Assembly (NCBI GenBank): GCA_945860705.1
Contig: CAMART010000009.1
Span: 38,248 to 102,247 of the forward strand
Origin: Chitinophaga pinensis
GTDB taxonomy: Bacteria > Bacteroidota > Bacteroidia > Chitinophagales > CAMDFR01
Reading direction: 5' to 3'
Length of the DNA: 64,000 nt
Shown: positions 20,350-52,754 of the stretch, piece by piece
How the letters are laid out: the number at the start of each line of letters is the position of its first letter
Position numbering within the stretch: the first letter of the stretch is position 1
Notes under the pieces: generated by a model
Database searches by the model: none
Seen by the model: only the letters and a program-made list of their open reading frames with translations
What the model was told of the DNA's origin: nothing
Position numbers and translations under genes: made by a program

Positions 20350-20455
20350 AGAACGGATATTGCGTAAGGGATAGTAGCGGTATCCTCTCTGTGCTAAATG
20401 CCAGAGAGATACAAGCGGATAGCACGACCTTGCCTTTGTATTTTGGCAAGGATAT
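20350..20455 (+). promoter_or_regulatory. candidate structured 5-prime leader or small RNA upstream of the ACP/KS cluster (class unknown)
   Basis: Three stems can be read directly. GGATA 20355-59 pairs with TATCC 20381-85. CTCTCTG 20385-91 pairs with CAGAGAG 20402-08, extendable by GUAU/AUAC. CCTTGCC 20428-34 pairs with GGCAAGG 20445-51. The local GC content is clearly above that of the surrounding spacer. Confidence 0.3.
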
Positions 20456-20528
20456 GCCCAGTGACAATATAGAATTATACTTATAAAGGCTATCAACTTT
20501 ACTAATATTTTTTCTACCTTTGGCATCT

Positions 20529-23762: not shown

Positions 23763-24525
23763 ATATAAAGTTGTAAATCTTATATTTATTGTGCTTATTG
23801 GTATCGCAATTTATTTAGTGTACAGCAAGCAGATTCCATTTTATTTGATACTGATTCTATTATTTTTTCACTCCATCATTATCGCACTAGGAGCCTATTT
23901 TATTCAGTTCAATTTTTTTGTAAAATCTTTTAATAAAGGAATAAATTCAACTAAAAGTATTTCGCTCACTTTTGATGATGGCCCACATGAGAATACACTT
24001 AAAGTTATAGAGGTACTAAAAAAGTATGATATTAAAGCATCATTTTTTTTAATAGGTAAAAACATCAAAGGCAAAGAAGATATACTCAAAAAGATAATTG
24101 ATGATGGTCATTTGGTAGGCAATCATTCGTATAAACATGATTTTTGGTATAGTATAAAATCAGTTAAAAATTTAGTTGCAGATATTCATCAAAATAATGC
24201 AGCTATTTCATCCATTACAGGATTAATATCAAACTGGTTTAGACCACCCTACGGAGTCACTAATCCTAGAATAGCCAATGCCATAAAAGCAACAAATATG
24301 AAATCTATTGGATGGAGTATACGAAGCTATGATACAGTAGGTGCAGATACCAATGCTACACTCAATAGAATATGCAAACAAATAAATGGTGCAGATATCG
24401 TATTGATGCATGATCATCTGGATACTACGGCACAGTTATTGGAAGATTTGATATTGTATTGCAAAAAAGAAAAGATTGAAATTTTGCCACTAGATAAAAT
24501 GATAAATATAAAACCATATGCGTAA
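23755..24525 (+). CDS. polysaccharide deacetylase (NodB/CE4) family protein with N-terminal TM segments
   Basis: NodB motifs TFDDGP, GNHSY.H and RPPYG. Confidence 0.85.
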   Translation: MSKYKVVNLIFIVLIGIAIYLVYSKQIPFYLILILLFFHSIIIALGAYFIQFNFFVKSFNKGINSTKSISLTFDDGPHENTLKVIEVLKKYDIKASFFLIGKNIKGKEDILKKIIDDGHLVGNHSYKHDFWYSIKSVKNLVADIHQNNAAISSITGLISNWFRPPYGVTNPRIANAIKATNMKSIGWSIRSYDTVGADTNATLNRICKQINGADIVLMHDHLDTTAQLLEDLILYCKKEKIEILPLDKMINIKPYA

Positions 24526-25159
24526 AATTATTTTTGTACTAAATAGTGTTTTGTTGATATGGAGTCTGGGAGCTAGCGTGCAAGCCCAAACATACACTCC
24601 TGTAAAAGATATAGAAGCAGTAAAACAAAAAATAGCTACAGCTAGTAAAAATATGAATAGCATGCAATCTAATTTTTCGCAAGAAAAATATATGAGTGTG
24701 ATGAGCCAAAAAATACAAAGCAAAGGTTTATTTTATTTTAAAAAAAACAATCAGGTAAGATGGGAATATACTGAGCCGTACAAATATATCATCGTGCTTG
24801 CAGGCGGAAAAATCCAAATAAAAGATGAAAAGAAAGTAAGTGAGTATGATATGAATGCCAATAAAGCATTTAAGCAAATCAATGATATGATGATACAATT
24901 AGTGCAGGGAAATGTACTGAATAGCACTTCATATATCATAAAATATTCAGAGTCTAGTACTAATTATTTACTAGATATGACACCTACAGATAAGAAACTA
25001 AAGTCTATGTTTAAGAACATTCAATTGTATTTTGATAAGAATACTTATGAGGTTAGTTCGTTTAAAATGATTGAAAATAACGGAGATTATACACTCATCA
25101 AATTCTCCAATAAAAAACAAAATGTAGCTATAGATGCTAGTAAGTTTGTTTTGAAATAA
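24518..25159 (+). CDS. LolA-like outer-membrane lipoprotein carrier family protein
   Basis: Signal peptide, then F.Q.......S......KG.FYF.K....RWEY..P....IV..G, the LolA-fold signature. Confidence 0.65.
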   Translation: MRKIIFVLNSVLLIWSLGASVQAQTYTPVKDIEAVKQKIATASKNMNSMQSNFSQEKYMSVMSQKIQSKGLFYFKKNNQVRWEYTEPYKYIIVLAGGKIQIKDEKKVSEYDMNANKAFKQINDMMIQLVQGNVLNSTSYIIKYSESSTNYLLDMTPTDKKLKSMFKNIQLYFDKNTYEVSSFKMIENNGDYTLIKFSNKKQNVAIDASKFVLK

Positions 25160-25160
25160 G

Positions 25161-25245
25161 CTTAGATACTAGATGCTAGACACTAGATTTAATGCTGATT
25201 AAATATCTAACTACTAATATCTAACGTCTAGCGTCTAAATATATT
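25161..25245. repeat. heptad-periodic tract (TAGAYNN x4, then the inverted CTA-phase x5)
   Basis: TAG occurs at 25163, 25170, 25177 and 25184. CTA occurs at 25207, 25214, 25221, 25228 and 25235. The two halves are imperfectly complementary. Confidence 0.75.
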
Positions 25246-25260
25246 AGTATTTTTGTTTTG

Positions 25261-25866
25261 ATGAAATTTTCAAAGAAAATATTCCTTTTGTTTTTATTTT
25301 TTATAGCTTTTCAAGTAAGTAAAGCGCAAGATAGTATCGTGTCTTTTTTCAATGAAAGAGATACGGTTTATCTATATCATACCTTACTAGATGTGTATAC
25401 TTTTCATTTTAGTGGAGTGATGGCTATCAAAAAACTAGAAACTCAACATAGAATAATTTTTAGTACTGAAACGGGCGCAACACTCTTTGACTTTACTATA
25501 GAAAAAAATAAATGCAAGACTAACTATATCATGAAAGAGATGGAAAATCCCATTTTTGTAAAATTGATTAAAACTGATTTATTAGACTTAGTACAAAGTT
25601 ATTTAGAGAAAAAGAATTATACAGATAAAGTAAAAGTATCAAATTATTCAAATTCTAATTTTAGATTAGATAATAATGGAAATCAAAATATAGTTTATAT
25701 TAGTGGATGTACCATTGATTTTATAAATAATAAAAATATTTATAAGACTATATCTCATATTAAATCAGATGAAAATGGAATAGTATCTTATGTAATAAAT
25801 ATTATACACAATAATCTTCCCATCAAAATAGAACTAAGTAAGTTTTATAATACCATAGAAGAATAG
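25261..25866 (+). CDS. hypothetical secreted protein
   Basis: Signal peptide (FFIAFQVSKAQ). No recognised motif. Confidence 0.5.
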   Translation: MKFSKKIFLLFLFFIAFQVSKAQDSIVSFFNERDTVYLYHTLLDVYTFHFSGVMAIKKLETQHRIIFSTETGATLFDFTIEKNKCKTNYIMKEMENPIFVKLIKTDLLDLVQSYLEKKNYTDKVKVSNYSNSNFRLDNNGNQNIVYISGCTIDFINNKNIYKTISHIKSDENGIVSYVINIIHNNLPIKIELSKFYNTIEE

Positions 25867-25966
25867 ATATTAGAAAGTAGGAGTTTGATGATAAATTTGA
25901 ATTAATATGAATATTTGTACAATTAAAATATTCATAATTCAAAATTAATTAATTCAGAATTAATTA
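25864..25966. repeat. heptad-periodic tract between convergent genes (TAG phase, then ATTCAAA phase)
   Basis: TAG occurs at 25864 (the real stop), 25871 and 25878. The heptads ATTCATA, ATTCAAA, ATTAATT, AATTCAG and AATTAAT span 25930-25964 and abut the stop of the minus-strand gene. Confidence 0.7.
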
Positions 25967-26992
25967 ATGCTCTCTACCATGTATTTTTTCTGCCAATTGA
26001 CGTAATATTGTTTTACTAGATTCGTCAGTATGTATATTATCTAAGTAGTGAATACATTCATGATAGTATTTATCTATACGAGCTGTTGTGTATTCTTCTA
26101 TTTTGTATTTATTAAAGATAGCTTTTACTTCATTGATTTTTTTCTCTTCATCGGTTTCATCCATCAAGTTGAGTAATGCTTTTTTATCAGCATCATCAGC
26201 CATTCTCAAAGCATTGATTAGTAAGAAGGTTTTTTTGTTGTTTAGTATATCTCCACCTATTCGTTTACCAACTTTAGCTTGTTCGCCAAATGTATCTAAC
26301 AAATCATCTTTTATTTGAAATGATAAACCAAGATACAAACCAAAATTGTAAATACTTTCTTGATCTTCAGATGATGCACCTGCTATGATTGCCCCAGCCT
26401 TTAGGCTACAAGCTAGCAAGACAGATGTTTTATATTCTATCATCTTGATATATTCTTCTTCAGCTACATCTAGACGTGTTTCAAAATCTACATCCAATTG
26501 CTGACCTTCATATATTTCGATGCTTGTTTTATTGAATACTTCTAATAATTCGGGTAGGCAACTTACAGGCGACATACATAGATATTTGTATGCATAAGAT
26601 AACATTGCATCGCCAGCTAGTATACCTGCATTTGTTCCAAAAACCTTATGAACTGTTGGATGACCTCTACGTATATCGGCTTTATCCATGATATCGTCAT
26701 GTACTAAAGTAAAATTATGGAAAACCTCCATAGCAAACGATGCATATAGAGCGTCTTTTATTTTTCCACCAAACATTTCACACGACATGAGGCAGAGCAT
26801 TGGTCGTATTCTTTTGCCTGGTATAGACATGATATGTTTTACGGGTTCATATAAGCCTTTCGGCTCAAAATCAAAGTGATCGGTACTAAAAGTCTCTTGA
26901 TATAACTTATATAAGTCTTCAGATGTATGCATTTTTGGGTAGGTTTCTATAGTATTACTGATATAGTCGTTTACAATTTCTTGAATAAACAT
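25964..26992 (-). CDS. polyprenyl diphosphate synthase (trans-isoprenyl synthetase family)
   Basis: First DDxxD motif LVHDDIMDKADIRRG and second motif FQIKDDLLD. Confidence 0.9.
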   Translation of the reverse strand: MFIQEIVNDYISNTIETYPKMHTSEDLYKLYQETFSTDHFDFEPKGLYEPVKHIMSIPGKRIRPMLCLMSCEMFGGKIKDALYASFAMEVFHNFTLVHDDIMDKADIRRGHPTVHKVFGTNAGILAGDAMLSYAYKYLCMSPVSCLPELLEVFNKTSIEIYEGQQLDVDFETRLDVAEEEYIKMIEYKTSVLLACSLKAGAIIAGASSEDQESIYNFGLYLGLSFQIKDDLLDTFGEQAKVGKRIGGDILNNKKTFLLINALRMADDADKKALLNLMDETDEEKKINEVKAIFNKYKIEEYTTARIDKYYHECIHYLDNIHTDESSKTILRQLAEKIHGREH

Positions 26993-33483: not shown

Positions 33484-34776
33484 ATGAAACGAATCGTACT
33501 CCTTTGTCTATCCCTAGTATTCATTACTAATTTGCATGCAGCAGATGAACAATATCTAATCTCATACAAATTGGTGAAAACCCATACTAAAGAGACTTTG
33601 AGAGCTTTATGGAAAAAAAATAAGTTGCCTAGAGCTATTGTTCCGGTTAACTATGAAGTAGACATATATGAAGTGCTCTATAATGCAAAATTCGTAGATG
33701 GCACTATGCGTAAAGCTTCTGGAATATATTATGTAGCAAAAAATCCTAAGCATCCACTACCATATTTTATGTTTGGACATGGTACAGAGATACATAAAGG
33801 AAGAAAAATATCTGATGATGATGCACAGCAAGGCATTTGTTTGGGTGCAGCTACCAATGGATATAATTCTGTATATCCAGATTATTTTGGTATAGGAACA
33901 GGAGATGGAAACCATATATACCAACATGCAGAGAGCGAAGCCAATGCATTTATTTATATGCTCTATGCAATAGATGAAATGAACAAAAAAATAGGAGTGA
34001 AAACTAATGGACAATTATTTTTGACGGGTTATTCTCAAGGTGGTCATGCTTCATTTGCAGCACATAAATATCTAGAAAAATTAAATGATTCACGTTTTCA
34101 GGTTACGGCTAGCTCACCTATGAGTGGCGCTTATGATATGAATGGCGACCAAGCAAAATTTATGTTTCAAGAATATCCACGACCATTTTATTTGCCTTAC
34201 TTATTAGTTTCTTATCAAGAAGCATATAAAGTGATAGAAACCGATAATATCTATTCTATTTTCAAAGCTCCTTATGATTCAATTTTACCTTTTTATTTTG
34301 AAGGAGAAAGAACTCATGGATTGTGGGACTTAAATAGAATCCTGCCTAAAGTACCAAAAGAAGCTGTGAAAGATTCGTTTATAAATATGTTTTTAAATGA
34401 TCCAAATTTCACGTTTAATGAGAGACTGCAAGAAAATAATTTATACGATTGGATGCCAAAAGCACCAGTTCAACTGTGCTATTGTCAAGGAGATAGAGAA
34501 GTATCCTACAAAAACTCTGAAAAAGTATATGAAGACATGACTAAGAGAGGAAAGAAAAATATTAAGCTGAATAACCTGAGTCCAAAATTAGATCACAATA
34601 CTTGCGCATTATTTGCGGTGATGGCTACAGTTGGCTATTTCGATAGATTTAAAAAACATGGCGAAAATCCAAAAATGAAAGATGTACCAGGATTTAAAAA
34701 GTTTTTGCTCAGCATAGTTCGTAAACAAGAAGAGAAAAAATATCTAGAAACAAAGAGCGATCATGCGTATTATTAG
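33484..34776 (+). CDS. secreted alpha/beta hydrolase (lipase-like)
   Basis: Signal peptide and the nucleophile elbow GYSQGGH. Confidence 0.6.
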   Translation: MKRIVLLCLSLVFITNLHAADEQYLISYKLVKTHTKETLRALWKKNKLPRAIVPVNYEVDIYEVLYNAKFVDGTMRKASGIYYVAKNPKHPLPYFMFGHGTEIHKGRKISDDDAQQGICLGAATNGYNSVYPDYFGIGTGDGNHIYQHAESEANAFIYMLYAIDEMNKKIGVKTNGQLFLTGYSQGGHASFAAHKYLEKLNDSRFQVTASSPMSGAYDMNGDQAKFMFQEYPRPFYLPYLLVSYQEAYKVIETDNIYSIFKAPYDSILPFYFEGERTHGLWDLNRILPKVPKEAVKDSFINMFLNDPNFTFNERLQENNLYDWMPKAPVQLCYCQGDREVSYKNSEKVYEDMTKRGKKNIKLNNLSPKLDHNTCALFAVMATVGYFDRFKKHGENPKMKDVPGFKKFLLSIVRKQEEKKYLETKSDHAYY

Positions 34777-34780
34777 AAAA

Positions 34781-34857
34781 TAGACTTTAGATACTAGATA
34801 TTAGACTTAAAACTTTTAACATATAACTTTCAACTTTAATCTCGTAACTTTGTTGTC
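34781..34857. repeat. heptad-periodic tract (TAGAYNN phase merging into NNAACTT phase), 11 units
   Basis: Units: tagactt tagatac tagatat tagactt aaaactt ttaacat ataactt tcaactt taatctc gtaactt tgttgtc. The real stop TAG at 34774 is in exact 7-nt register with the tract. Confidence 0.8.
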
Positions 34858-34875
34858 TATTTAAAAGATGTGCAA

Positions 34876-35109
34876 ATGAAAAAGTATCTATTATCAGCAA
34901 TTTTAATGATATTTCAATTGGCTACTTACGCGCAATGTGCTATGTGCAAAGCCAATGCAGAAACGAGTGTAAACTCAGGTGCAAAAGACCTTATCAGTAT
35001 CAATAGAGGGATTATATATTTATTAGTAGCTCCATATATGTTGGTAATGACAGTAGGTCTTATCTGGTGGTATCATCGCAAAAAAGCACAAAAAGCTGCT
35101 CTAGATTAA
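34876..35109 (+). CDS. small membrane-anchored protein (signal peptide plus C-terminal TM segment)
   Basis: MKKYLLSAILMIFQLATYAQCAMCK..., followed by a C-terminal TM segment and a basic tail. Confidence 0.45.
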   Translation: MKKYLLSAILMIFQLATYAQCAMCKANAETSVNSGAKDLISINRGIIYLLVAPYMLVMTVGLIWWYHRKKAQKAALD

Positions 35110-35851: not shown

Positions 35852-35893
35852 ATTCAAAATTCAAAATTCTATAATTCAAAATTAATAAACTAG
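35852..35893. repeat. heptad-periodic ATTCAAA tract abutting the pgk stop codon
   Basis: Units attcaaa attcaaa attctat aattcaa aattaat aaactag. In mRNA sense this places TGA or TAA every 7 nt. Confidence 0.75.
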
Positions 35894-37083
35894 CCTCGTA
35901 TCGCTTTTATACCAGGTAGTTCTTTGCCTTCAAAAAACTCAAGCATAGCACCACCACCTGTACTCACATAGCTTACTTTATCTGCCAAATTAAATTTGTG
36001 AATAGCTGCAACACTATCACCACCACCTATCAATGAATAAGTGCCTTTGCTCGTAGCATCTGCTATAGCTAGTGCTATTTGTTTTGTACCATTACTAAAT
36101 TTATCCATTTCAAAAACACCCATTGGCCCATTCCAAAGAATAGTTTTAGAGTTGGCTATCACATCACAAAATTCTTTCACTGCTTTTTCACCTATATCTA
36201 ATCCCATCCATCCATCTTCTATATGCATATTGTCAGATACTTTAGTATTTGCATTTGCATCAAATTTATCAGCTATGATAGAATCTACAGGTAAATAAAT
36301 ATGTACGTTTTTAGCTTTTGCTTTTTTGATGAGTGAGTTGGCAAGATCTAGTTTATCCATTTCGCAAAGTGAACTTCCTATATTGCCTCCCATAGCTTTA
36401 AAGAATGTATACGCCATACCTCCACCGATGATAATATTATTCGCTACATTCAATAGGTTTTCTATGATCAATATTTTGTCAGATACTTTGGCACCACCAA
36501 GTATAGCTGTAAATGGTCTTTCAGCATCTTTCATTACTTTTTCAGCTGCACTTACTTCACCTTGCATACAGTATCCAAACATTTTTTCGCCAACATCAAA
36601 ATAGCTAGCTATCACAGCCGTACTAGCGTGTGCTCTATGTGCAGTACCAAATGCATCATTGATATATACATCACCAAGTTGCGAAAGTTCCTCCGAAAAT
36701 ACTTTATCGCCTTCTTCCTCTTCAGGATTGAAACGAGTATTTTCTAGCATCAAAACTTCTCCCATTTCTAATGTACCACATGCCAATACTGCTTCAGCAT
36801 CTATACAATTTGGTGCATGCTTTATAGGCATCCCAAGTAGCTTACTGAGCGTAGGAATCAGGTGTTTTGTAGAGTATTTATCTTCTGGGCCACTTTTGGG
36901 TCTACCAAAGTGAGTCATCAATATCACTGCACCACCATCAGCCAATACTTTTTTTATAGTAGGTATTGCAGCTTGTATTCTACTATCATCTGTCACATTA
37001 AAATCCTTGTCCATCGGAACATTGAAGTCTACACGTATCAATGCCTTTAAGCCTTTAAAATTGTAATTATCTATGTTTACCAT
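35890..37083 (-). CDS. pgk: phosphoglycerate kinase
   Basis: RVDFNVP, a GRPK-like stretch FGRPKSG, and GGGDS...STGGGA..E. The start is set at MVNIDNYNFKG (37083). The upstream 17 codons in the track translate the ATTCAAA repeat. Confidence 0.95.
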   Translation of the reverse strand: MVNIDNYNFKGLKALIRVDFNVPMDKDFNVTDDSRIQAAIPTIKKVLADGGAVILMTHFGRPKSGPEDKYSTKHLIPTLSKLLGMPIKHAPNCIDAEAVLACGTLEMGEVLMLENTRFNPEEEEGDKVFSEELSQLGDVYINDAFGTAHRAHASTAVIASYFDVGEKMFGYCMQGEVSAAEKVMKDAERPFTAILGGAKVSDKILIIENLLNVANNIIIGGGMAYTFFKAMGGNIGSSLCEMDKLDLANSLIKKAKAKNVHIYLPVDSIIADKFDANANTKVSDNMHIEDGWMGLDIGEKAVKEFCDVIANSKTILWNGPMGVFEMDKFSNGTKQIALAIADATSKGTYSLIGGGDSVAAIHKFNLADKVSYVSTGGGAMLEFFEGKELPGIKAIRG

Positions 37084-37195
37084 TTTATTAAATTTTGAAT
37101 TATTGAATTTTGAATTCATAAAAAATGAATTCAAAAAACCTACTTAAATTATGCAAGCTTTAATTAGTTTATTTTATAACCTTAAATTTTAATAG

Positions 37196-38295
<1,100 letters not shown>

Positions 38296-38481: not shown

Positions 38482-38491
38482 CGCGCGACAG

Positions 38492-38521
38492 AAGCCTCAA
38501 GATTTTCTTGAGGCTTTTTTT
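38492..38521 (+). terminator. intrinsic terminator after tRNA-Glu
   Basis: An 11-bp stem AAGCCTCAAGA / TCTTGAGGCTT followed by a T-run. Confidence 0.7.
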
Positions 38522-38679
38522 ATTGCTTAGATTTTGTTTTTTTTTATTCTGTCGCTTGGTTCTGTCGAGTGACAATTATTATATTGCTTCTAGCATATAT
38601 ATATATAAGCCAGAGGCTATAGAATACAAATCACTTCACCCAAAATATGTAAGAGCCGAGCGATTGATTTGAATTATTC

Positions 38680-39724: not shown

Positions 39725-39733
39725 AAATAGACG

Positions 39734-39757
39734 CTAGTCCCGAAGCTTCGGGACTAG
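39734..39757. terminator. bidirectional terminator hairpin between convergent genes
   Basis: A perfect 24-nt palindrome CTAGTCCCGAAGCTTCGGGACTAG embedded in a TAG-heptad tract. Confidence 0.6.
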
Positions 39758-39831
39758 ATGTTAGACACTAGATATTACAAATTATGCAGTATGAAAAACT
39801 TTGAACATTACACTTGAAACTTTTAACTATA
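39758..39831. repeat. heptad-periodic tract (TAGAYNN phase, then AACTTTN phase)
   Basis: TAG occurs at 39755, 39762 and 39769. The heptads aactttg aacatta cacttga aactttt aactata at 39797-39831 overlap the stop of the minus-strand gene (39827-29). Confidence 0.7.
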
Positions 39832-40834
39832 AAGATTTCTGTAAGCTAGCCAACGTATTTTTTACATCTACTAATTTTTCTTCTTTACTAGCTATTTTTT
39901 CTTCTAGCATAGTTATTTTAGCTTCACGTAGTTTTGCTTCTAGTTGATTTACATTTCTATCATCTCTCTTTCTTATTTGATACTCCAAGTCTTTTTTGTC
40001 ATAATCTTGAGATTTCTCTAGTTTATTGATGATTTCTGTAAGATCATGTATACGTTTATCGTTGTGTTTAGTCTCTCGTTCGTTTCTTCTATTTTTTAGC
40101 AAATCAAAAGCTTCGTCCAAATCTTTATGAAGCTCTTCTCTGCTTGGCTTACGAAGCGTAAGTTTTATTACATTATTACGTTGTTCTTTTAGCTGTTCAA
40201 AAAGTTCCTTAGCAGGCTGGTTTTTTTTGATGCCATCAGTTATTTGTTGTATGACAGTTTTTAACTCAGTATAGATAGTTTCAGCTTGTTCGCCATATTT
40301 TTTGTTCTCATCAGAACGTAGTTCTTTCAGTTTATCAAATACCGCATTTACTTCTTCTTTGAGTTCATCTACCTTATCTTGACCAATATTTTTTTCTCTT
40401 CTATGGTCCAATATTCTCTCCCAAAGTGCTTTTGTTTGTTCAAATGCATCTTTGCTATATGCAGTGAAAGTATTCACTTTTTCTTTGATATCCTTAAGTT
40501 CATCTACAATAGATTCTACCAATTTTTCAGTCAATAACAAATAAGCCCATTCATTTTGTAGGTTTCTTATTTTACCCGTTTCATCTACTTTTATGTCATC
40601 AGGTAGTAAAGAATCTTCACTCAAAGGACGAGTGATTAATTTATGATTTTCTGGAAAAGCAAGTTCCTTACCTTTTGCCCATTCTTTTTCTAGTTTTTCA
40701 GCAAATTCTTTATCTACATCTTTCTCATCAAAGAAGTATATATCTACCTTAAATCCAGCTTTATCCAATTGCAAAGCCAATAATTGTCTTTTGCCTTCTT
40801 TTGCACTACTTTTTGTAACAAATCGTTCTTTCAT
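39827..40834 (-). CDS. highly charged coiled-coil protein (possibly DUF349-like)
   Basis: It is 335 aa and dominated by K, E, D and L heptad-like helices. No enzymatic motif. Confidence 0.5.
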   Translation of the reverse strand: MKERFVTKSSAKEGKRQLLALQLDKAGFKVDIYFFDEKDVDKEFAEKLEKEWAKGKELAFPENHKLITRPLSEDSLLPDDIKVDETGKIRNLQNEWAYLLLTEKLVESIVDELKDIKEKVNTFTAYSKDAFEQTKALWERILDHRREKNIGQDKVDELKEEVNAVFDKLKELRSDENKKYGEQAETIYTELKTVIQQITDGIKKNQPAKELFEQLKEQRNNVIKLTLRKPSREELHKDLDEAFDLLKNRRNERETKHNDKRIHDLTEIINKLEKSQDYDKKDLEYQIRKRDDRNVNQLEAKLREAKITMLEEKIASKEEKLVDVKNTLASLQKSL

Positions 40835-40917: not shown

Positions 40918-41556
40918 ATGATTCAAATAATTGATTTTCTGAAGAATTTTGATGAAACTCTACTTCCCGGTTGGGAGGCACAAAGGCTCATGTCTCCACC
41001 CTATAGGGGAGAATTGGATATGAATGCTATACTAGCAAAACAACCAAAACAAGGTGCAGTGGCTATTATTTTATATTATAAAAATGATGAATTGCATTTT
41101 ATTTTGACTCAAAGACAGGAATATGAAGGTACTCACAGCGGTCAGGTGAGTTTCCCTGGTGGAAAAAAAGATGGTAACGAGCACGTTTTAGATACTGCAA
41201 TTCGCGAAACTAAAGAGGAAATAGGTGTGGCATTAAGTCAAGAACATTTTTGTTGTTCTTTATCGCCAATATATATACCTCCAAGTCATTTTTTAGTGAG
41301 TCCACAGGTTTTCTTCATGCAACAAATTACAGAGTTTACAAAAGATGTACGAGAAGTGAAAGAGATTGTAGAAGTGCCTTTAATACAATTATTTTTAGCA
41401 GATAATAAAACAAATAAAGACATTGCAACATCACAAGGATTGATAAAAAACATACCTGCTTATACTTTAAATGAAAAAATTGTTTGGGGAGCTACGGCAG
41501 TAATATTAAGCGAATTGGAACAGATTTTAAATCAGATGCTAGATACTATACATTAG
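40918..41556 (+). CDS. NUDIX hydrolase (CoA pyrophosphatase-like)
   Basis: Nudix box GGKKDGNEHVLDTAIRETKEEIGV. ATG at 40918 preferred over TTG at 40912. Confidence 0.8.
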   Translation: MIQIIDFLKNFDETLLPGWEAQRLMSPPYRGELDMNAILAKQPKQGAVAIILYYKNDELHFILTQRQEYEGTHSGQVSFPGGKKDGNEHVLDTAIRETKEEIGVALSQEHFCCSLSPIYIPPSHFLVSPQVFFMQQITEFTKDVREVKEIVEVPLIQLFLADNKTNKDIATSQGLIKNIPAYTLNEKIVWGATAVILSELEQILNQMLDTIH

Positions 41557-41567
41557 ATATTAGATTT
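41540..41567. repeat. short TAG-heptad tract overlapping the NUDIX gene stop
   Basis: Units tagatac tatacat tagatat tagattt. The real stop TAG at 41554 is in register. Confidence 0.6.
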
Positions 41568-42037: not shown

Positions 42038-42072
42038 AACTTTAAACTTTTAACTTTTAACTTTGAACTAGT
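42038..42072. repeat. heptad-periodic AACTTTN tract overlapping the MFS gene stop
   Basis: Units aacttta aactttt aactttt aactttg aactagt. The stop of the minus-strand gene is at 42057-59. Confidence 0.75.
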
Positions 42073-43295
42073 TCAATTTGTTTATGGTATTTTTTTATGA
42101 GGACTTGATAGGCATATACTCCAATGCTATACATAAATGCAGTCACTAGTAAAATATAACTATAACTCACCTCTAGACTTCTCAATATCTCAAATATTTT
42201 TGCTGAGAAAAACCAAGATCCACTCCAAATAGATGCTGTGAGTGAGCTGACTAATTCTCTGTTTTTTTCGCCAACATAGTTCATGGTTAGTTCAGATGTC
42301 ATAGGTCCCGCTACATTCATCAGTGGCTGTCTGATGATAAAAAGAAATATAGCAATATATACTGCATACCATCGTTCTTTGTACCACTCTGTAGATGCTA
42401 ATCCTACAAGTATTATTATGGCTATCACTTGCACTAAAGTGATGGCTACTTCATATCCAAAACTTCTTTTGATAGTAGGAATAATAAAAGTACCGATAGC
42501 TACCAATACATAAGTACTTGCACCCATCATAGCAAAAGTATTTGAATCTACTCCATGTACATTTTCAAAAAATAAATTGATAAACTGAATCGTCAATCCT
42601 GCACCGATAGCAATGATAGTAGTAGGAATCAATGTAGCAAATATTTTTTGCCAATCATATGTTTTATAAGCTTTTGATAAGGGTACTCGTGCTGAGGTGA
42701 TTTCTTTATTTTTTATTCTAAATAAAAACACAAGACCAATTGCAGACAGAGCCGATATCAGGTACAAAAAATTTCTATCTATAGACAATACAGGATAAAA
42801 ATGCTTGAATAAAAAGTGCAGTATGCCTACAAAAATCATGGAGAAGGTAAAAGTTTGAAACGTAAGTGCCATTACTTCTGTATGAGTGCCAGCCTCACTA
42901 TTCAATAATAAATATGGGGTGACCGTAGCAGACAAACAAGCAAATGCTATACCCCAACAAAACATGGATAAGATAATCATATTATTGAGTTGATGGTCTA
43001 TAGCATATATTTCTAAAAATGCAATCAATGGAAGAAAACACATAGCTGTGATAAACCATGCACGAAGTTTTTTGCCTTTGATATACAAGCCAAGTGGGAA
43101 CGCTATCAATGTGATAGCAATATAATTATAAGAAGTAAAATTGGCTATTTCAAAATCTTTATAACCTTTTGAAAGCATAAAGTAATTGCGTAACAATCCA
43201 AAAGCAGCATTCATCATCTGAATGAAAAATTGCGCTAAAATTATTTTGTAAATATTTCTATCTACTTGCTTATATGTTTCTAAAATCTTTTTCAC
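42057..43295 (-). CDS. MFS transporter
   Basis: A profile of about 12 TM segments over 412 aa. Confidence 0.7.
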   Translation of the reverse strand: MKKILETYKQVDRNIYKIILAQFFIQMMNAAFGLLRNYFMLSKGYKDFEIANFTSYNYIAITLIAFPLGLYIKGKKLRAWFITAMCFLPLIAFLEIYAIDHQLNNMIILSMFCWGIAFACLSATVTPYLLLNSEAGTHTEVMALTFQTFTFSMIFVGILHFLFKHFYPVLSIDRNFLYLISALSAIGLVFLFRIKNKEITSARVPLSKAYKTYDWQKIFATLIPTTIIAIGAGLTIQFINLFFENVHGVDSNTFAMMGASTYVLVAIGTFIIPTIKRSFGYEVAITLVQVIAIIILVGLASTEWYKERWYAVYIAIFLFIIRQPLMNVAGPMTSELTMNYVGEKNRELVSSLTASIWSGSWFFSAKIFEILRSLEVSYSYILLVTAFMYSIGVYAYQVLIKKYHKQIELVQS

Positions 43296-47412: not shown

Positions 47413-47480
47413 ATCGCCATTCAAGGTTTTGTAAACTTGAATTATTTTTGATTTGCTGGTGACAAGACTAGCAAAGGCGA
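47413..47480 (-). pseudogene. decayed fragment of a paralogue of the adjacent 78-aa gene
   Basis: By hand alignment, positions 47413-47480 match 47624-47691 at roughly five of every six positions. The fragment translates IAFASLVTSKSKIIQVYKTLNGDC* against LAFADVVSSKAKINQGDNTLNGD, and it has no start codon. Confidence 0.5.
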
Positions 47481-47485
47481 TTAAA

Positions 47486-47722
47486 TTATTTTACTCCTAA
47501 CTGTTCCATTTTTTCTTTAGCTCTATTAAAAAATTTCATGACTTGTTCATAATTTGAGAAATCATATCTTGATATACCAAAATCATCTGAGCGAAAATAC
47601 CAGTTTAAAGTTTGATTTTCTACATCGCCATTCAAGGTGTTATCACCTTGATTTATTTTTGCTTTGCTGGAGACAACATCAGCAAAGGCGAGGAAAGTAA
47701 TTATGATTAGTAAATGTTCCAT
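47486..47722 (-). CDS. small secreted hypothetical protein (paralogue family)
   Basis: The C-terminal LNWYF......F.....Q..KFF.RAK.K motif is shared with the next gene. Confidence 0.5.
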   Translation of the reverse strand: MEHLLIIITFLAFADVVSSKAKINQGDNTLNGDVENQTLNWYFRSDDFGISRYDFSNYEQVMKFFNRAKEKMEQLGVK

Positions 47723-48826: not shown

Positions 48827-49010
48827 AGATAAGATTTTTTACAAATAATCAAACCTTGATTAATAAATTGCTCTAAGCAATTAAATATTAATCACTCGGC
48901 AGAGCCGAGCGATAGAGTACTAGATAAGATTTTTTACAAATATTCAAACCTTGTTTAATAAATTGCTTTAAGCAATTAAATATTAATCACTCGGCAGAGC
49001 CGAGCGATAG
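48827..49010. repeat. tandem duplication (two 89-nt units, 95-bp period) with two hairpins per unit
   Basis: Units 48827-48915 and 48922-49010 differ at 3 positions. Each contains AATTGC(n5)GCAATT and CTCGGC-AGA-GCCGAG. Confidence 0.85.
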
Positions 49011-49028
49011 GTTAGCGTTAAATAATTA

Positions 49029-49114
49029 AACATTAACCATTTTACATCCAACATTACATTTAACATTTACTATTTAACATTTAGCATTTAAAATTAAACA
49101 TTTAGCATTTAAAA
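49029..49114. repeat. heptad-periodic AACATTT/AGCATTT/AAAATTA tract abutting the msrB stop
   Basis: The CAT trinucleotide recurs at 49031, 38, 45, 52, 57, 64, 78, 85, 99 and 106, giving period 7 with one slip. The last 21 nt are duplicated exactly. Confidence 0.8.
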
Positions 49115-49594
49115 TTATTTCCCGCTCGGTTTAAAATCTAGTGACAAGGAGTTGACACAATAGCGCATGCCAGTAGGAGCTGGGCCATCATCAAATACAT
49201 GACCTAAGTGTGAGCCACATTTTTTGCATACTATTTCTTCACGCAACATATTGTAAGTGCTATCTGTGTGAGATGCTACATTATTTCCTATTTCATTGAA
49301 GAAGCTAGGCCAGCCTGTACCACTCTTAAATTTTGTATCGGAGCTAAAAAGTGGAGCACTACATACGGCACAATAGTAAATGCCTTTTTCATAATGATTG
49401 TCATATTTCCCACTGAAAGGAGATTCTGTAGCTTTATCGTGGCATACTTTGTATTGTTCTGGACTGAGGTTGTTCCACTTAGCATTTTGAGTACTATCTG
49501 CTTGACTAGTATAGCTATTAGCATGAACAGTAGAGTTCATGTTTTTGCAGTTCATAGAGCTCAGTATTACTAAAAAATACATCATCGTTTTCAT
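49115..49594 (-). CDS. msrB: peptide-methionine (R)-S-oxide reductase with signal peptide
   Basis: CAVC....F.S..KF.SGTGWPSF and CKKCGSHLGHVF.DGP.PTG.RYC.NS. Confidence 0.9.
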   Translation of the reverse strand: MKTMMYFLVILSSMNCKNMNSTVHANSYTSQADSTQNAKWNNLSPEQYKVCHDKATESPFSGKYDNHYEKGIYYCAVCSAPLFSSDTKFKSGTGWPSFFNEIGNNVASHTDSTYNMLREEIVCKKCGSHLGHVFDDGPAPTGMRYCVNSLSLDFKPSGK

Positions 49595-50579: not shown

Positions 50580-51494
50580 ATGAAATACATATTTTATATT
50601 CTTTGTGTTACTATTTTTTTTGTTTCTTGTAAAAGAAATCAAGGAAGTAGTTTGATTATTGCACCAGATAGCAATACTATAGTAGCAGATTCAAGCTATT
50701 CAAAAGTTTATATAGCGGCTAATGAATTAAAAAAAGAGAGCGTAGATTTTTTGCAAATAGAGTACCCATTTATAAAAGAAAAAAATACAGGAGTAGTAAA
50801 AGTTTCTAAAAAATCATTCATCAATACTGCACAGAATTCTACAAAAACTGAGATGCAAATTGAGCCAATATATTTTAAAAATAAAACAGCAAGTATAGAA
50901 AAATACAATATAATCGTAGATGCAGATGCACTAGAATATAGAGATGCTTGTTTATTTGCTAAAAAAAATGGAACAGATACAACTGAAGATTTTTACTATG
51001 TATACAATCCATTGTCAGGCGAAGAATTATTTACCTATACCAATGATTATTTTGATTTAGTTATACCAAATTCTAAAGTGCGAAGATTCATCGGTTTTAC
51101 TTCTACAAAAAGAGTTTTAGCTAGCGAAGAAAAAACCATTAAAAATTTAATTGGTCATTTATTTTATGCATCTAATTTTAAACAAATACAAGAGTTTGAA
51201 ATCACTGCTAAAGATGAAACTATATTTAAAACTTTTTCTTTATATACTCCAAAAATATTATTGAAAACTACTAATGCTAATTATAGTTTGATAGATGAAG
51301 GTAGGAGACTAGCATTGATGAATTTGACAGAAGAAAATAATGCATCCGATTTTTCAAACATTCAATTAGAAATCACTTTTTATTATGGAGATGATGCAAA
51401 AGAATCTATTTGTATTATTCCAATAAAAGATGATAAGTTGGATATAAGTAAAAGTGTATACGATAAAAATTTAATACAAATCAATACTAAATAA
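50580..51494 (+). CDS. hypothetical lipoprotein
   Basis: Lipobox FFVSC. No recognised motif. Confidence 0.5.
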   Translation: MKYIFYILCVTIFFVSCKRNQGSSLIIAPDSNTIVADSSYSKVYIAANELKKESVDFLQIEYPFIKEKNTGVVKVSKKSFINTAQNSTKTEMQIEPIYFKNKTASIEKYNIIVDADALEYRDACLFAKKNGTDTTEDFYYVYNPLSGEELFTYTNDYFDLVIPNSKVRRFIGFTSTKRVLASEEKTIKNLIGHLFYASNFKQIQEFEITAKDETIFKTFSLYTPKILLKTTNANYSLIDEGRRLALMNLTEENNASDFSNIQLEITFYYGDDAKESICIIPIKDDKLDISKSVYDKNLIQINTK

Positions 51495-52096
51495 TGAATG
51501 AACAATTGCCAGTAATGGAGCACTTTTACACCTTGCAAGGCGAAGGTTATTATCAAGGACAAGCTGCCTATTTTATAAGATTGGGTGGCTGTGATGTGGG
51601 TTGTACTTGGTGCGATGTAAAGGAGAGTTGGGATGCTAGCAAACACCCAATGTATAGTATTGATGAAATAGTGCAATTCGTAAAAGATTCAAAAGCATCT
51701 CTCGCAGTCATCACGGGAGGTGAGCCAACCATGCATTCATTAGTTGCATTGACTGATACTTTGATAAATAATGGTATTCGATCTAATATAGAAACATCGG
51801 GTACCAATTCATTAACTGGTTCGTGGAATTGGATTTGCTTTTCTCCAAAAAGATTTAAAAAACCACTCGAAGAATACTATGAGAAATCTCATGAACTAAA
51901 AGTAGTTATCAATCATGTAAATGATTTGAGATGGGCTCAGGCACATGCGGATAAAATGAATCCTACATCTAAACTTTATTTGCAACCAGAGTGGGACAAT
52001 AGAGAGAGTGTAACGGAAGCAATAATCGATTATATAAAAGAGCACCCAAGATGGCAACTGTCACTTCAAACTCATAAGTATCTCAATATACCATAA
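51494..52096 (+). CDS. queE: 7-carboxy-7-deazaguanine synthase (radical SAM)
   Basis: FYTLQGEG...G....FIRLGGCDVGCTWCD, a CX3CX2C-type cluster with the QueE N-terminal pattern. Confidence 0.85.
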   Translation: MNEQLPVMEHFYTLQGEGYYQGQAAYFIRLGGCDVGCTWCDVKESWDASKHPMYSIDEIVQFVKDSKASLAVITGGEPTMHSLVALTDTLINNGIRSNIETSGTNSLTGSWNWICFSPKRFKKPLEEYYEKSHELKVVINHVNDLRWAQAHADKMNPTSKLYLQPEWDNRESVTEAIIDYIKEHPRWQLSLQTHKYLNIP

Positions 52097-52754
52097 AACT
52101 AGAATCCCGATAAATCAACCTGTGAATTATCGGGATACCTAACCTTAAAACTACCTAACACTATCTCTTACGTAGAGAAAATGAAAAGGTTACAATTATT
52201 TATCTTTTATTTGAAAAATTATAATTTGACTTAAAAATAGAATCCCGATAAATCAACCTGTGAATTATCGGGATACCTAACCTTAAAACTACCTAACACT
52301 ATCTCTTACGCAGAGAAAATGAAAAGGTTACAATTATTTATCTTTTATTTGAAAAATTATAATTTGAGTTAAAACTAGAATCCCGATAAATCAACCTGTG
52401 AATTATCGGGATACCTAACCTTAAAACTACCTAACACTCTCTCTTACGCAGAGAAAATGAAAAGGTTACATTTATTTATCTTTTATTTGAAAATTTATGA
52501 TTTGGGTTAAAAATAGAATCCCGATAAATCAACCTGTGAATTATCGGGATACCTAACCTTAAAACTACCTAACACTATCTCTTACGCTGAGAAAATGAAA
52601 AGGTTACAATTATTTATATTTTATTTGAAAAATTATAATTTGAGTTAAAACTAGAATCCCGATAAATCAACCTGTGAATTATCGGGATACCTAACCTTAA
52701 AACTACCTAACACCATCTCTTACGCTAGGAAAATGAAAAGGTTACATTTATTTA
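52097..52754. repeat. tandem array, 138-bp period, 4 full units plus 1 truncated unit
   Basis: AGAATCCCGATAA recurs at 52101, 52239, 52377, 52515 and 52653. The units are near-identical. Each has a 10-bp stem ATCCCGATAA / TTATCGGGAT with a 13-nt loop. Confidence 0.95.

Follow-up and report, generated by a model that had tools for sequence, protein, structure and literature searches.

Period-7 tandem arrays beside stop codons are an additional example of heptamer repeats in low-GC Bacteroidota

STRR are heptamer tandem repeats of cyanobacteria, and SDR hairpin elements are reportedly embedded in the tandem heptamers of Nostoc. A period of 7 is also found in the HutP site, in which UAG is followed by four nucleotides and two sets of three UAG are present. 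Intergenic heptamer tandem repeats have been described in Beggiatoaceae, Cyanobacteria and five Bacteroidetes, with other heptamers in the same spacers and with relatives that have shorter, repeat-free spacers (MacGregor 2015, PMC4679880). For the TAACTGA repeats in that work, it was noted that forward-reading stops in a heptamer repeat restrict its overlap with a coding end, and S1, Csp or CsrA-type proteins were proposed as candidate binders (MacGregor 2015, PMC4679880). As far as it is summarised in PMC4679880, Mrazek 2007 found heptanucleotides to be the commonest long SSR among units of 5–11 nt. Our literature searches on heptamers that follow stop codons, and on heptamer repeats of Flavobacteria, gave nothing beyond PMC4679880.

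We analysed a 64-kb stretch of DNA (hereafter the window) that has a GC content of about 31% and T9SS (type IX secretion) markers among its genes, and we found that it carries period-7 arrays of this kind. They consist of at least three head-to-tail copies of a heptanucleotide, occur above chance and are concentrated in non-coding DNA; these heptamer arrays belong to a known class and are an additional example of it in low-GC Bacteroidota. A first-pass annotation of the window had held that no described element has such properties, a view that does not stand beside the intergenic heptanucleotide tandem repeats already described (MacGregor 2015, PMC4679880). Among named relatives, Chitinophagales/Bacteroidota MAGs come nearest. 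The genes that carry arrays are ordinary ones: LolA-family, polyprenyl synthase, gap, pgk, NUDIX, MFS and msrB.

The archetype lies behind the LolA-family gene (24518–25159), whose TAA stop at 25157 is followed by a spacer of about 95–98 nt. Its 5' arm (25163–25190, plus strand) begins after a gap of 3 nt and consists of the units TAGATAC, TAGATGC, TAGACAC and TAGATTT. After a 13-nt linker comes the 3' arm (25202–25238), an inverted copy whose minus-strand units are TAGACGC, TAGACGT, TAGATAT, TAGTAGT and TAGATAT; the two arms pair with each other. Re-reading the sequence bore out the two phases described earlier, with TAG at 25163, 25170, 25177 and 25184 and CTA at 25207, 25214, 25221, 25228 and 25235, and the long imperfect hairpin proposed for this spacer agrees with a predicted fold of –26.2 kcal/mol (z = –3.3).

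Throughout the window, 11 arrays from four unit families lie no more than 5 nt from a stop codon or overlap one, with array-to-stop gaps of 3, –3, 2, –3, 1, 5, 3, 0, –24, –13 and –3 nt; the first-pass annotation had placed such tracts at about ten gene ends, and every coordinate it gave is correct. Read in the sense of the adjoining gene, the families are TAGAYNN, TTTGAAT, AAAGTTN and AAATGTT. Tandem Repeats Finder reports period-7 arrays at 25163, 25202, 25220, 25930, 35852, 37091, 37196, 41540, 42038 and 49025, with copy numbers in the window of 2.4–13.6, and the arrays at 25864, 34774, 34809, 39728 and 39797 were taken from direct reading of the sequence.

The TAGAYNN family recurs at four further plus-strand sites. 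At 25864–25884 (TAGATAT, TAGAAAG, TAGGAGT) a 201-aa gene (25258–25866) has the first unit as its stop codon, and so does a lipase-like gene (33484–34776) at 34774–34808 (TAGAAAA, TAGACTT, TAGATAC, TAGATAT, TAGACTT). The array at 39728–39779 begins 3 nt past the stop of a DUF4296 gene with TAGACGC and a TAG that leads into an embedded GC hairpin (39736–39755) and CTAGATGT, and ends with TAGACAC and TAGATAT. The array at 41533–41567 (CAGATGC, TAGATAC, TATACAT, TAGATAT, TAGATTT) covers the final 24 nt of the NUDIX gene, where the in-frame TAG at 41554 is the stop. Across about 26 units the TAGA core is nearly invariant and positions 5–7 are variable. A restriction of this variation to transitions (YRY) is not general, as arrays with transversions and transition-only arrays number 26:22 at position 6 and 42:12 at position 7. 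We also considered whether two 116-aa genes beside TAGA arrays are paralogs with duplicated flanks; the genes are unrelated.

The TTTGAAT family is found on the minus strand. A TTTGAAT/ATTCAAA inverted pair (25895–25961) occupies a convergent spacer, and the polyprenyl synthase gene (25964–26992, minus strand) has its stop 2 nt from one of the arms (25930–25961). A TTTGAAT array in the sense of pgk (35852–35888) is 1 nt from the pgk stop. In the gap–pgk intercistronic spacer (37086–37225), a TTTGAAT array (37196–37225) lies 5 nt past the gap stop and its complement, ATTCAAA in sense, lies at 37086–37118 in the pgk leader. The longest pgk ORF has a TTG start at 37134 (minus strand). Because its Pfam PGK domain starts at residue 21 and the strain gene calls are 397 aa long, the true start is about 17 codons downstream of this TTG (37083–37134), with the ATTCAAA arm in the leader and not in coding sequence.

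The remaining arrays belong to the AACTTTN/AAAGTTN and AAATGTT families. An AACTTTN array (34809–34860, plus strand) shares the register of the TAGA array at 34774, without complementarity to it, and ends 15 nt upstream of a 77-codon ORF (34876–35109). On the minus strand, an AAAGTTN array (39797–39826) in the sense of the minus-strand gene 39827–40834 abuts the stop of that gene, and an AAAAGTT array (42038–42069) covers the final 13 nt of the MFS gene (42057–43295). An array of about 13 AAATGTT/AAATGCT units (49025–49117, minus strand) begins on the msrB stop (msrB, 49115–49594) in a 325-nt spacer. As had been pointed out, the units at 25864, 34774 and 41554 are themselves the true stop codons, in exact register; the same is seen within the arrays at 42057 and 49115. 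Bacteroidetes –7 promoter boxes (TAnnTTTG) can be read in AACTTTG units; chance alone would give about six on each strand of the 5.9 kb of spacer, and we set them aside. Between a tRNA-Leu and the AAATGTT array there is a separate repeat of a 95-bp unit (48827–49010, 1.9 copies, 96% identity) with the hairpins AATTGCTNTAAGCAATT and CTCGGCAGAGCCGAG, and a partial copy of its GAGCCGAGCGAT motif is found near 38655.

To compare these observations with chance, we counted tracts against shuffled and coding sequence. Tracts with at least 15 of 21 matches at lag 7 number 8 in the window and 1.9 in dinucleotide shuffles, so the excess of period 7 over such a control is real, and the pattern of three TAGAYNN units plus TAGA with at most two mismatches has 9 matches in the window where 0.07 are expected. 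At the boundaries of 55 genes, period-7 tracts are found at 8 3' ends and 4 5' ends, and other periods within 5–11 give 0–4. Exclusive placement at 3' ends is therefore not confirmed, since the difference between 8 and 4 genes is not significant within the window (p = 0.36); the divergent spacers of the window (1.5 kb) have zero tracts where about 2 are expected. Tract density in the window is 1.2–1.7 per kb of spacer as compared to 0.018 per kb of coding sequence, and a spacer-to-coding ratio of about 60-fold is found both in the window and in about 120 loci from other genomes. By an arithmetic estimate, the chance that an array falls within 5 nt of the stop is about 0.03 for each of the long spacers, one of 258 nt and the other of 325 nt.

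The closest relative found, L131 (GCA_037130135.1), is syntenic with the window, with 85% amino acid identity in the polyprenyl synthase and 75% in the LolA-family protein. In this sister species, the junction from the LolA-family gene to the next start is 4 nt long, where the window has its arrayed spacer of about 95 nt, and the convergent junction is 15 nt long; the proteins at the LolA and convergent junctions both end at residues that are homologous between L131 and the window. We found no array in 21 kb of L131, and in three relatives together (L131–L133, 63 kb) we found no clear arrays, just five weak tracts at the laxest threshold, as compared to 11 arrays in the 64-kb window. Conservation in related genomes, which the first-pass annotation had put forward as a check, is thus not seen: the arrays are missing from the same junctions of L131, and from L132 and L133. 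They are lineage-specific and sporadic, as is the heptamer-repeat class. Because the sister junctions of 4 and 15 nt have no arrays and the protein ends are homologous, the arrays appear to be recent additions exactly behind ancestral stops; these junctions had no other free DNA, and therefore much of the adjacency of array and stop is explained.

Among strains, most arrays are identical in 5–10 contigs and no simple 7-nt steps in copy number were seen. Some junctions nevertheless differ. The MFS-gene array at 42038 has three strain haplotypes, one with a 62-nt insertion of extra AACTTTN units and a GC hairpin. The pgk 3' spacer has the TTTGAAT array in the window and in L142, and in strains L134 and L135 AACATTN units flank a different GC hairpin. 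A single strain SNP changes TAGACAC to TAGATAC in the array at 39728–39779. The arrays lie behind stops of housekeeping genes (gap, pgk, msrB, LolA-family) and are mostly strain-invariant, and in this they are not phase-variation repeats, which sit in a promoter or at the 5' side of a coding region and switch the gene as their copy number changes among strains.

Taken together, these data lead us to favour, with moderate confidence, the reading that the tracts are a lineage-specific burst of heptamer arrays of the STRR/long-SSR type that has been filtered by position and orientation. The unit families TAGAYNN, TTTGAAT, AAAGTTN/AACTTTN and AAATGTT would have spread into gene junctions that were once compact, often with an array and its inverted counterpart together, and sometimes with an embedded short GC hairpin. 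Slippage or recombination that keeps the 7-nt register would create and renew the arrays, which would survive only where they are harmless; behind a stop, they would disturb neither a promoter nor a leader. Growth up to or over a stop codon would be possible only in the orientation whose transcript has stop triplets. As 7 mod 3 = 1, three units of an array in this orientation are enough to close all frames, and the stop would then look "in register" although the protein end stays the same. If so, three-frame stops and sense orientation would be products of arithmetic and purifying selection and not the purpose of an element. Several observations count against a repeat burst. The near-invariance of the TAGA core is more that of a recognised motif than of a decaying microsatellite, the same families at several junctions need a mechanism of dispersal, most arrays are identical among strains, the TAGA arm comes first in inverted pairs at 24:3, and the predicted folds of several pairs are much more stable than those of shuffled sequence (z = –3 to –6).

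To identify how much of the stop pattern such a filter leaves to be explained, we examined stop triplets and orientation. The first-pass annotation had proposed that the tracts give stops in three frames and that the stop triplet is always in the sense of the gene. Sense stop triplets are indeed present in 11 of 11 arrays; three-frame stops, however, are found on the sense strand of 7 of 11 arrays and not in the rest, and the antisense strand also has them in 5 of 11. The probability that a given strand of a random tandem heptamer with the composition of the window spacers has a stop is 0.57. The sense rule is likewise non-discriminating for three of the four families, and only TTTGAAT is strand-specific: TAGAYRC, AACTTTT and AACATTT arrays have stops on both strands because the CTAG and TTAA at their unit junctions are palindromic.

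In a sample of about 230–240 loci from other genomes, we took period-7 tracts independently of any search pattern and used G>C in sense as the measure of orientation (stop triplets have no C). Tracts adjacent to 3' ends have G>C in sense at 41:13 and 23:12, and array-free flanks show no such bias. When these tracts are divided by position, the ratio is 46:13 for tracts that touch or overlap the stop, and the bias is absent, at 18:12, where a tract starts downstream of it. TAGAYNN arrays with such a downstream start are oriented 14:7. Since the bias falls to 18:12 once stop-overlapping tracts are removed, we rejected G>C polarity as an independent rule and retain it only as an effect of constraint. 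All six window arrays that begin after the stop still have G>C in sense, by small margins, which again counts against the repeat burst. The sense-orientation rule thus follows from logic and selection, as a stop can be reached or replaced only by the orientation that supplies stops and the 7-nt period closes all frames within three units. A metagenome scan for (TTTGAAT)3 was rejected as a second test of orientation, as 71 of 80 matches lie more than 100 nt from a stop, deep in long ORFs on the stop-free ATTCAAA strand; intergenic (TTTGAAT)3 matches in metagenomes have no orientation bias (12 versus 10). In metagenome loci L144–L263, exact (TTTGAAT)3 is mostly in the middle of an ORF on the ATTCAAA strand, where it would encode a 7-residue peptide repeat, and is not a spacer array.

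The alternative that survives best, though we think it improbable, is that the tracts act as RNA structure in 3' UTRs and intercistronic spacers, where a hairpin behind the stop would stabilise the upstream mRNA, attenuate or terminate transcription, or mask the next leader in translational coupling. An array plus its inverted copy is present in three spacers (25160, 25895–25961 and 37086–37225) with predicted folds of z = –3 to –6: –3.3 at 25160, –2.9 and –4.2 at 25860, and –6.1 at 37085–37232, where the 3' arm overlaps the pgk leader. The array–hairpin–array modules of the strain haplotypes and the recurrence of the array plus inverted array layout in other phyla are also in keeping with a structural role, as is the embedded GC hairpin with a U-rich tail at 39734–39757, which was the only array feature to pass a terminator scan; the archetype and the direct arrays fail. 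Five of the nine array-bearing spacers, in contrast, are unstructured (direct arrays at 34770, 35830, 41535, 42000 and 49010, z = –1.2 to +1.6). Sense folds are not consistently more stable than antisense folds, and a preference for sense-strand structure through G–U pairs was rejected on the same mixed energies. The sister species has the same operon with a 4-nt junction, and a canonical terminator lies about 130 nt beyond the pgk array (35852–35888). Each of these points argues against a structural role. Canonical terminators are also found elsewhere in the window, for example at 38490–38518.

Against the Rfam 15 covariance models only tRNAs in the window reach the gathering score, and the archetype has only a chance match to a plant miRNA hairpin (26 bits versus 60). 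A sub-threshold match to the Flavo-1 RNA motif (RF01705) at 20357–20433 (plus strand) covers the full model length with 37.8 bits versus a gathering score of 42 (E = 1.3e-6). It falls within a GC-rich island, in the spacer of 369 nt that precedes the gene at 20520, and strain gene content differs just upstream of it, with DMP19, ParDE and FRG genes in L002, L003 and L009. Two other structured repeats in the window have no Rfam match. A 138-bp unit is repeated 4.8 times at 95% identity (52094–52754) directly after a small radical-SAM gene (51494–52096), and each unit has a hairpin, CCCGATAA...TTATCGGG, and a 17-codon ORF, MKRLQLFIFYLKNYNLT; precursor peptides or leaders may be what this repeat encodes in series. 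Two 79-nt copies with 82% identity (47413–47491 and 47624–47702) form two hairpins within an outer stem (–25.4 kcal/mol, z = –5.3), the base changes between the copies preserve both inner stems, and a conserved 22-nt box with a minus-strand ATG lies behind either copy.

An exact scan for three TAGAYNN units plus TAGA in other genomes gave at least 120 loci. Among the matches listed, TAGAYNN arrays are found in Bacteroidota, Cyanobacteria (mostly Microcoleus), Acidobacteriota, Chloroflexota, Clostridia and others, and many of them adjoin start codons rather than stops. In Bacteroidota, start-abutting arrays, with a leader that reads AAATCTA, are about as many as stop-abutting ones among the matches listed. 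Spacer densities in Bacteroidota are 1.41 per kb in convergent, 1.09 in tandem and 0.54 in divergent spacers, which is a preference for the 3' side and not a rule. The layout of an array plus an inverted array is common among the matches listed, and the TAGA arm is first in 24 versus 3; the constraint model accounts for this arm order only partly. In Microcoleus and other cyanobacterial loci (L013–L125), perfect TAGATTT arrays have a conserved TCAnTCGATTT flank in front and often a GC hairpin like CCACGGATAAATYCGGGGGCTTG behind; for many of them the distance to a candidate start codon of the opposite strand is exactly 7 nt. The combination of array, flank and hairpin looks like a dispersed composite element.

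With regard to the origin of the arrays, small mobile elements or an active repeat-adding process may be involved, in which dedicated machinery would insert arrays and mini-hairpins as proposed for Nostoc SDRs; we regard this as doubtful. It would explain dispersal, the swapping of arrays at junctions and the fixed polarity of the arms: each family is found at 3–5 junctions, the pgk junction has two unrelated array haplotypes within one species, the 62-nt indel carries a hairpin inside an array, TAGA-first polarity is 24:3, and the Microcoleus arrays have conserved flanks and adjacent GC hairpins. The proteins of the window that were scanned, however, include no transposase, reverse transcriptase or RAYT-like gene, we found no target-site duplications or conserved termini, and the GC hairpins differ in sequence. 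Equally tentative is the more specific proposal of an active, strand-polar process, a tiny mobile element or repeat adder akin to the drivers of cyanobacterial heptamers and SDRs, that would target junctions and lay down the strand with G so that it points away from the gene on either side. If true, it would account for the 24:3 polarity, for a TAGA core across phyla and for the swap of families at one junction within a species.

That the arrays bind an oligomeric protein (HutP-like, TRAP-like or of the cold-shock/S1 type) which recognises RNA or ssDNA with a footprint of 7 nt, and which would load on the transcript behind the terminating ribosome, seems to us a slim prospect. TAGA arrays do combine an invariant 4-nt core with a variable 3-nt spacer, and the UAG-N4 spacing is that of the HutP site. 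S1, Csp or CsrA-type binders have their precedent in the proposal for TAACTGA repeats (MacGregor 2015, PMC4679880). At least four unrelated unit families in the same type of position, on the other hand, argue against one specific binder, no candidate was found among the window proteins scanned, and the arrays are missing from the sister species.

The suggestion in the first-pass annotation of a fail-safe stop, by which arrays would be selected to end read-through or frameshifted ribosomes in all frames, is very improbable: it has on its side the sense stops in 11 of 11 arrays (three frames in 7 of 11) and the bias of stop-touching tracts to the stop-bearing strand, but sister junctions have no arrays, antisense strands are stopped almost as often (5 of 11), 57% of random heptamers have a stop and any frame in AT-rich DNA would thus close after about 13 codons anyway, 4–13 units are present where three are enough, the bias is gone for tracts that begin after the stop (18:12), and the same families are found upstream of start codons elsewhere.

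If the repeat-burst reading is true, the arrays are a cautionary case in which a 7-nt period and purifying selection give an engineered look, and an uncultured low-GC Bacteroidota lineage with about one array per 6 kb joins the short list of heptamer-rich genomes. Strain-level turnover would make population metagenomics a practical way to ask about the origin and spread of the arrays, their period, their core and the order of their arms; the organism occurs in many samples, and 144 collection blocks contain its LolA-family protein.

The window arrays can be compared with several described systems. Like HutP and TRAP sites, they have UAG triplets at a fixed short spacing, and by inspection the spacing in TAGA arrays fits HutP; HutP and TRAP sites, however, are single 5'-leader sites of specific Bacillus operons, whereas the window has four families at many unrelated 3' ends, and UAG is missing from three of the four. 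As with Nostoc SDRs, short hairpins are inserted in arrays, at 39736–39755, at 42038 in the haplotype with the 62-nt insertion, and in L134 behind pgk. The window hairpins have no common sequence family, and mobility is conjecture here. The arrays share with STRR the favoured heptanucleotide, a sporadic phylogeny, a non-coding location and slippage as the proposed origin. They differ from long SSRs and STRR in having little copy-number variation among strains and, in the TAGA family, a conserved core with a variable spacer.

The traits shared with STRR are shared with long SSRs as well, as far as Mrazek 2007 is summarised in PMC4679880. REP, BIME and REPIN sequences are likewise repeats that form hairpins and are scattered over the 3' ends of genes and within operons (PMC3116915); REPs are single 20–40-nt palindromes with a conserved head and a RAYT transposase (PMC3116915), whereas the window has 7-nt tandem arrays, no conserved palindromic unit and no Y1 transposase/RAYT among the proteins scanned. 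A further likeness is to the TAACTGA-type repeats (PMC4679880). The window units (TAGAYNN, TTTGAAT, AAAGTTN, AAATGTT) differ from these in being other heptamers and degenerate rather than perfect copies, and nearly all window arrays abut stops, whereas in BOGUAY, the most closely studied Beggiatoaceae genome, most repeats precede starts (PMC4679880). Both nevertheless have 7-nt units in tandem within spacers, with more than one family of heptamers in a single genome, both are present in one species and absent in its closest relative with a shorter spacer, and in both forward stops limit overlap with coding sequence and some sets lie behind or between stop codons.
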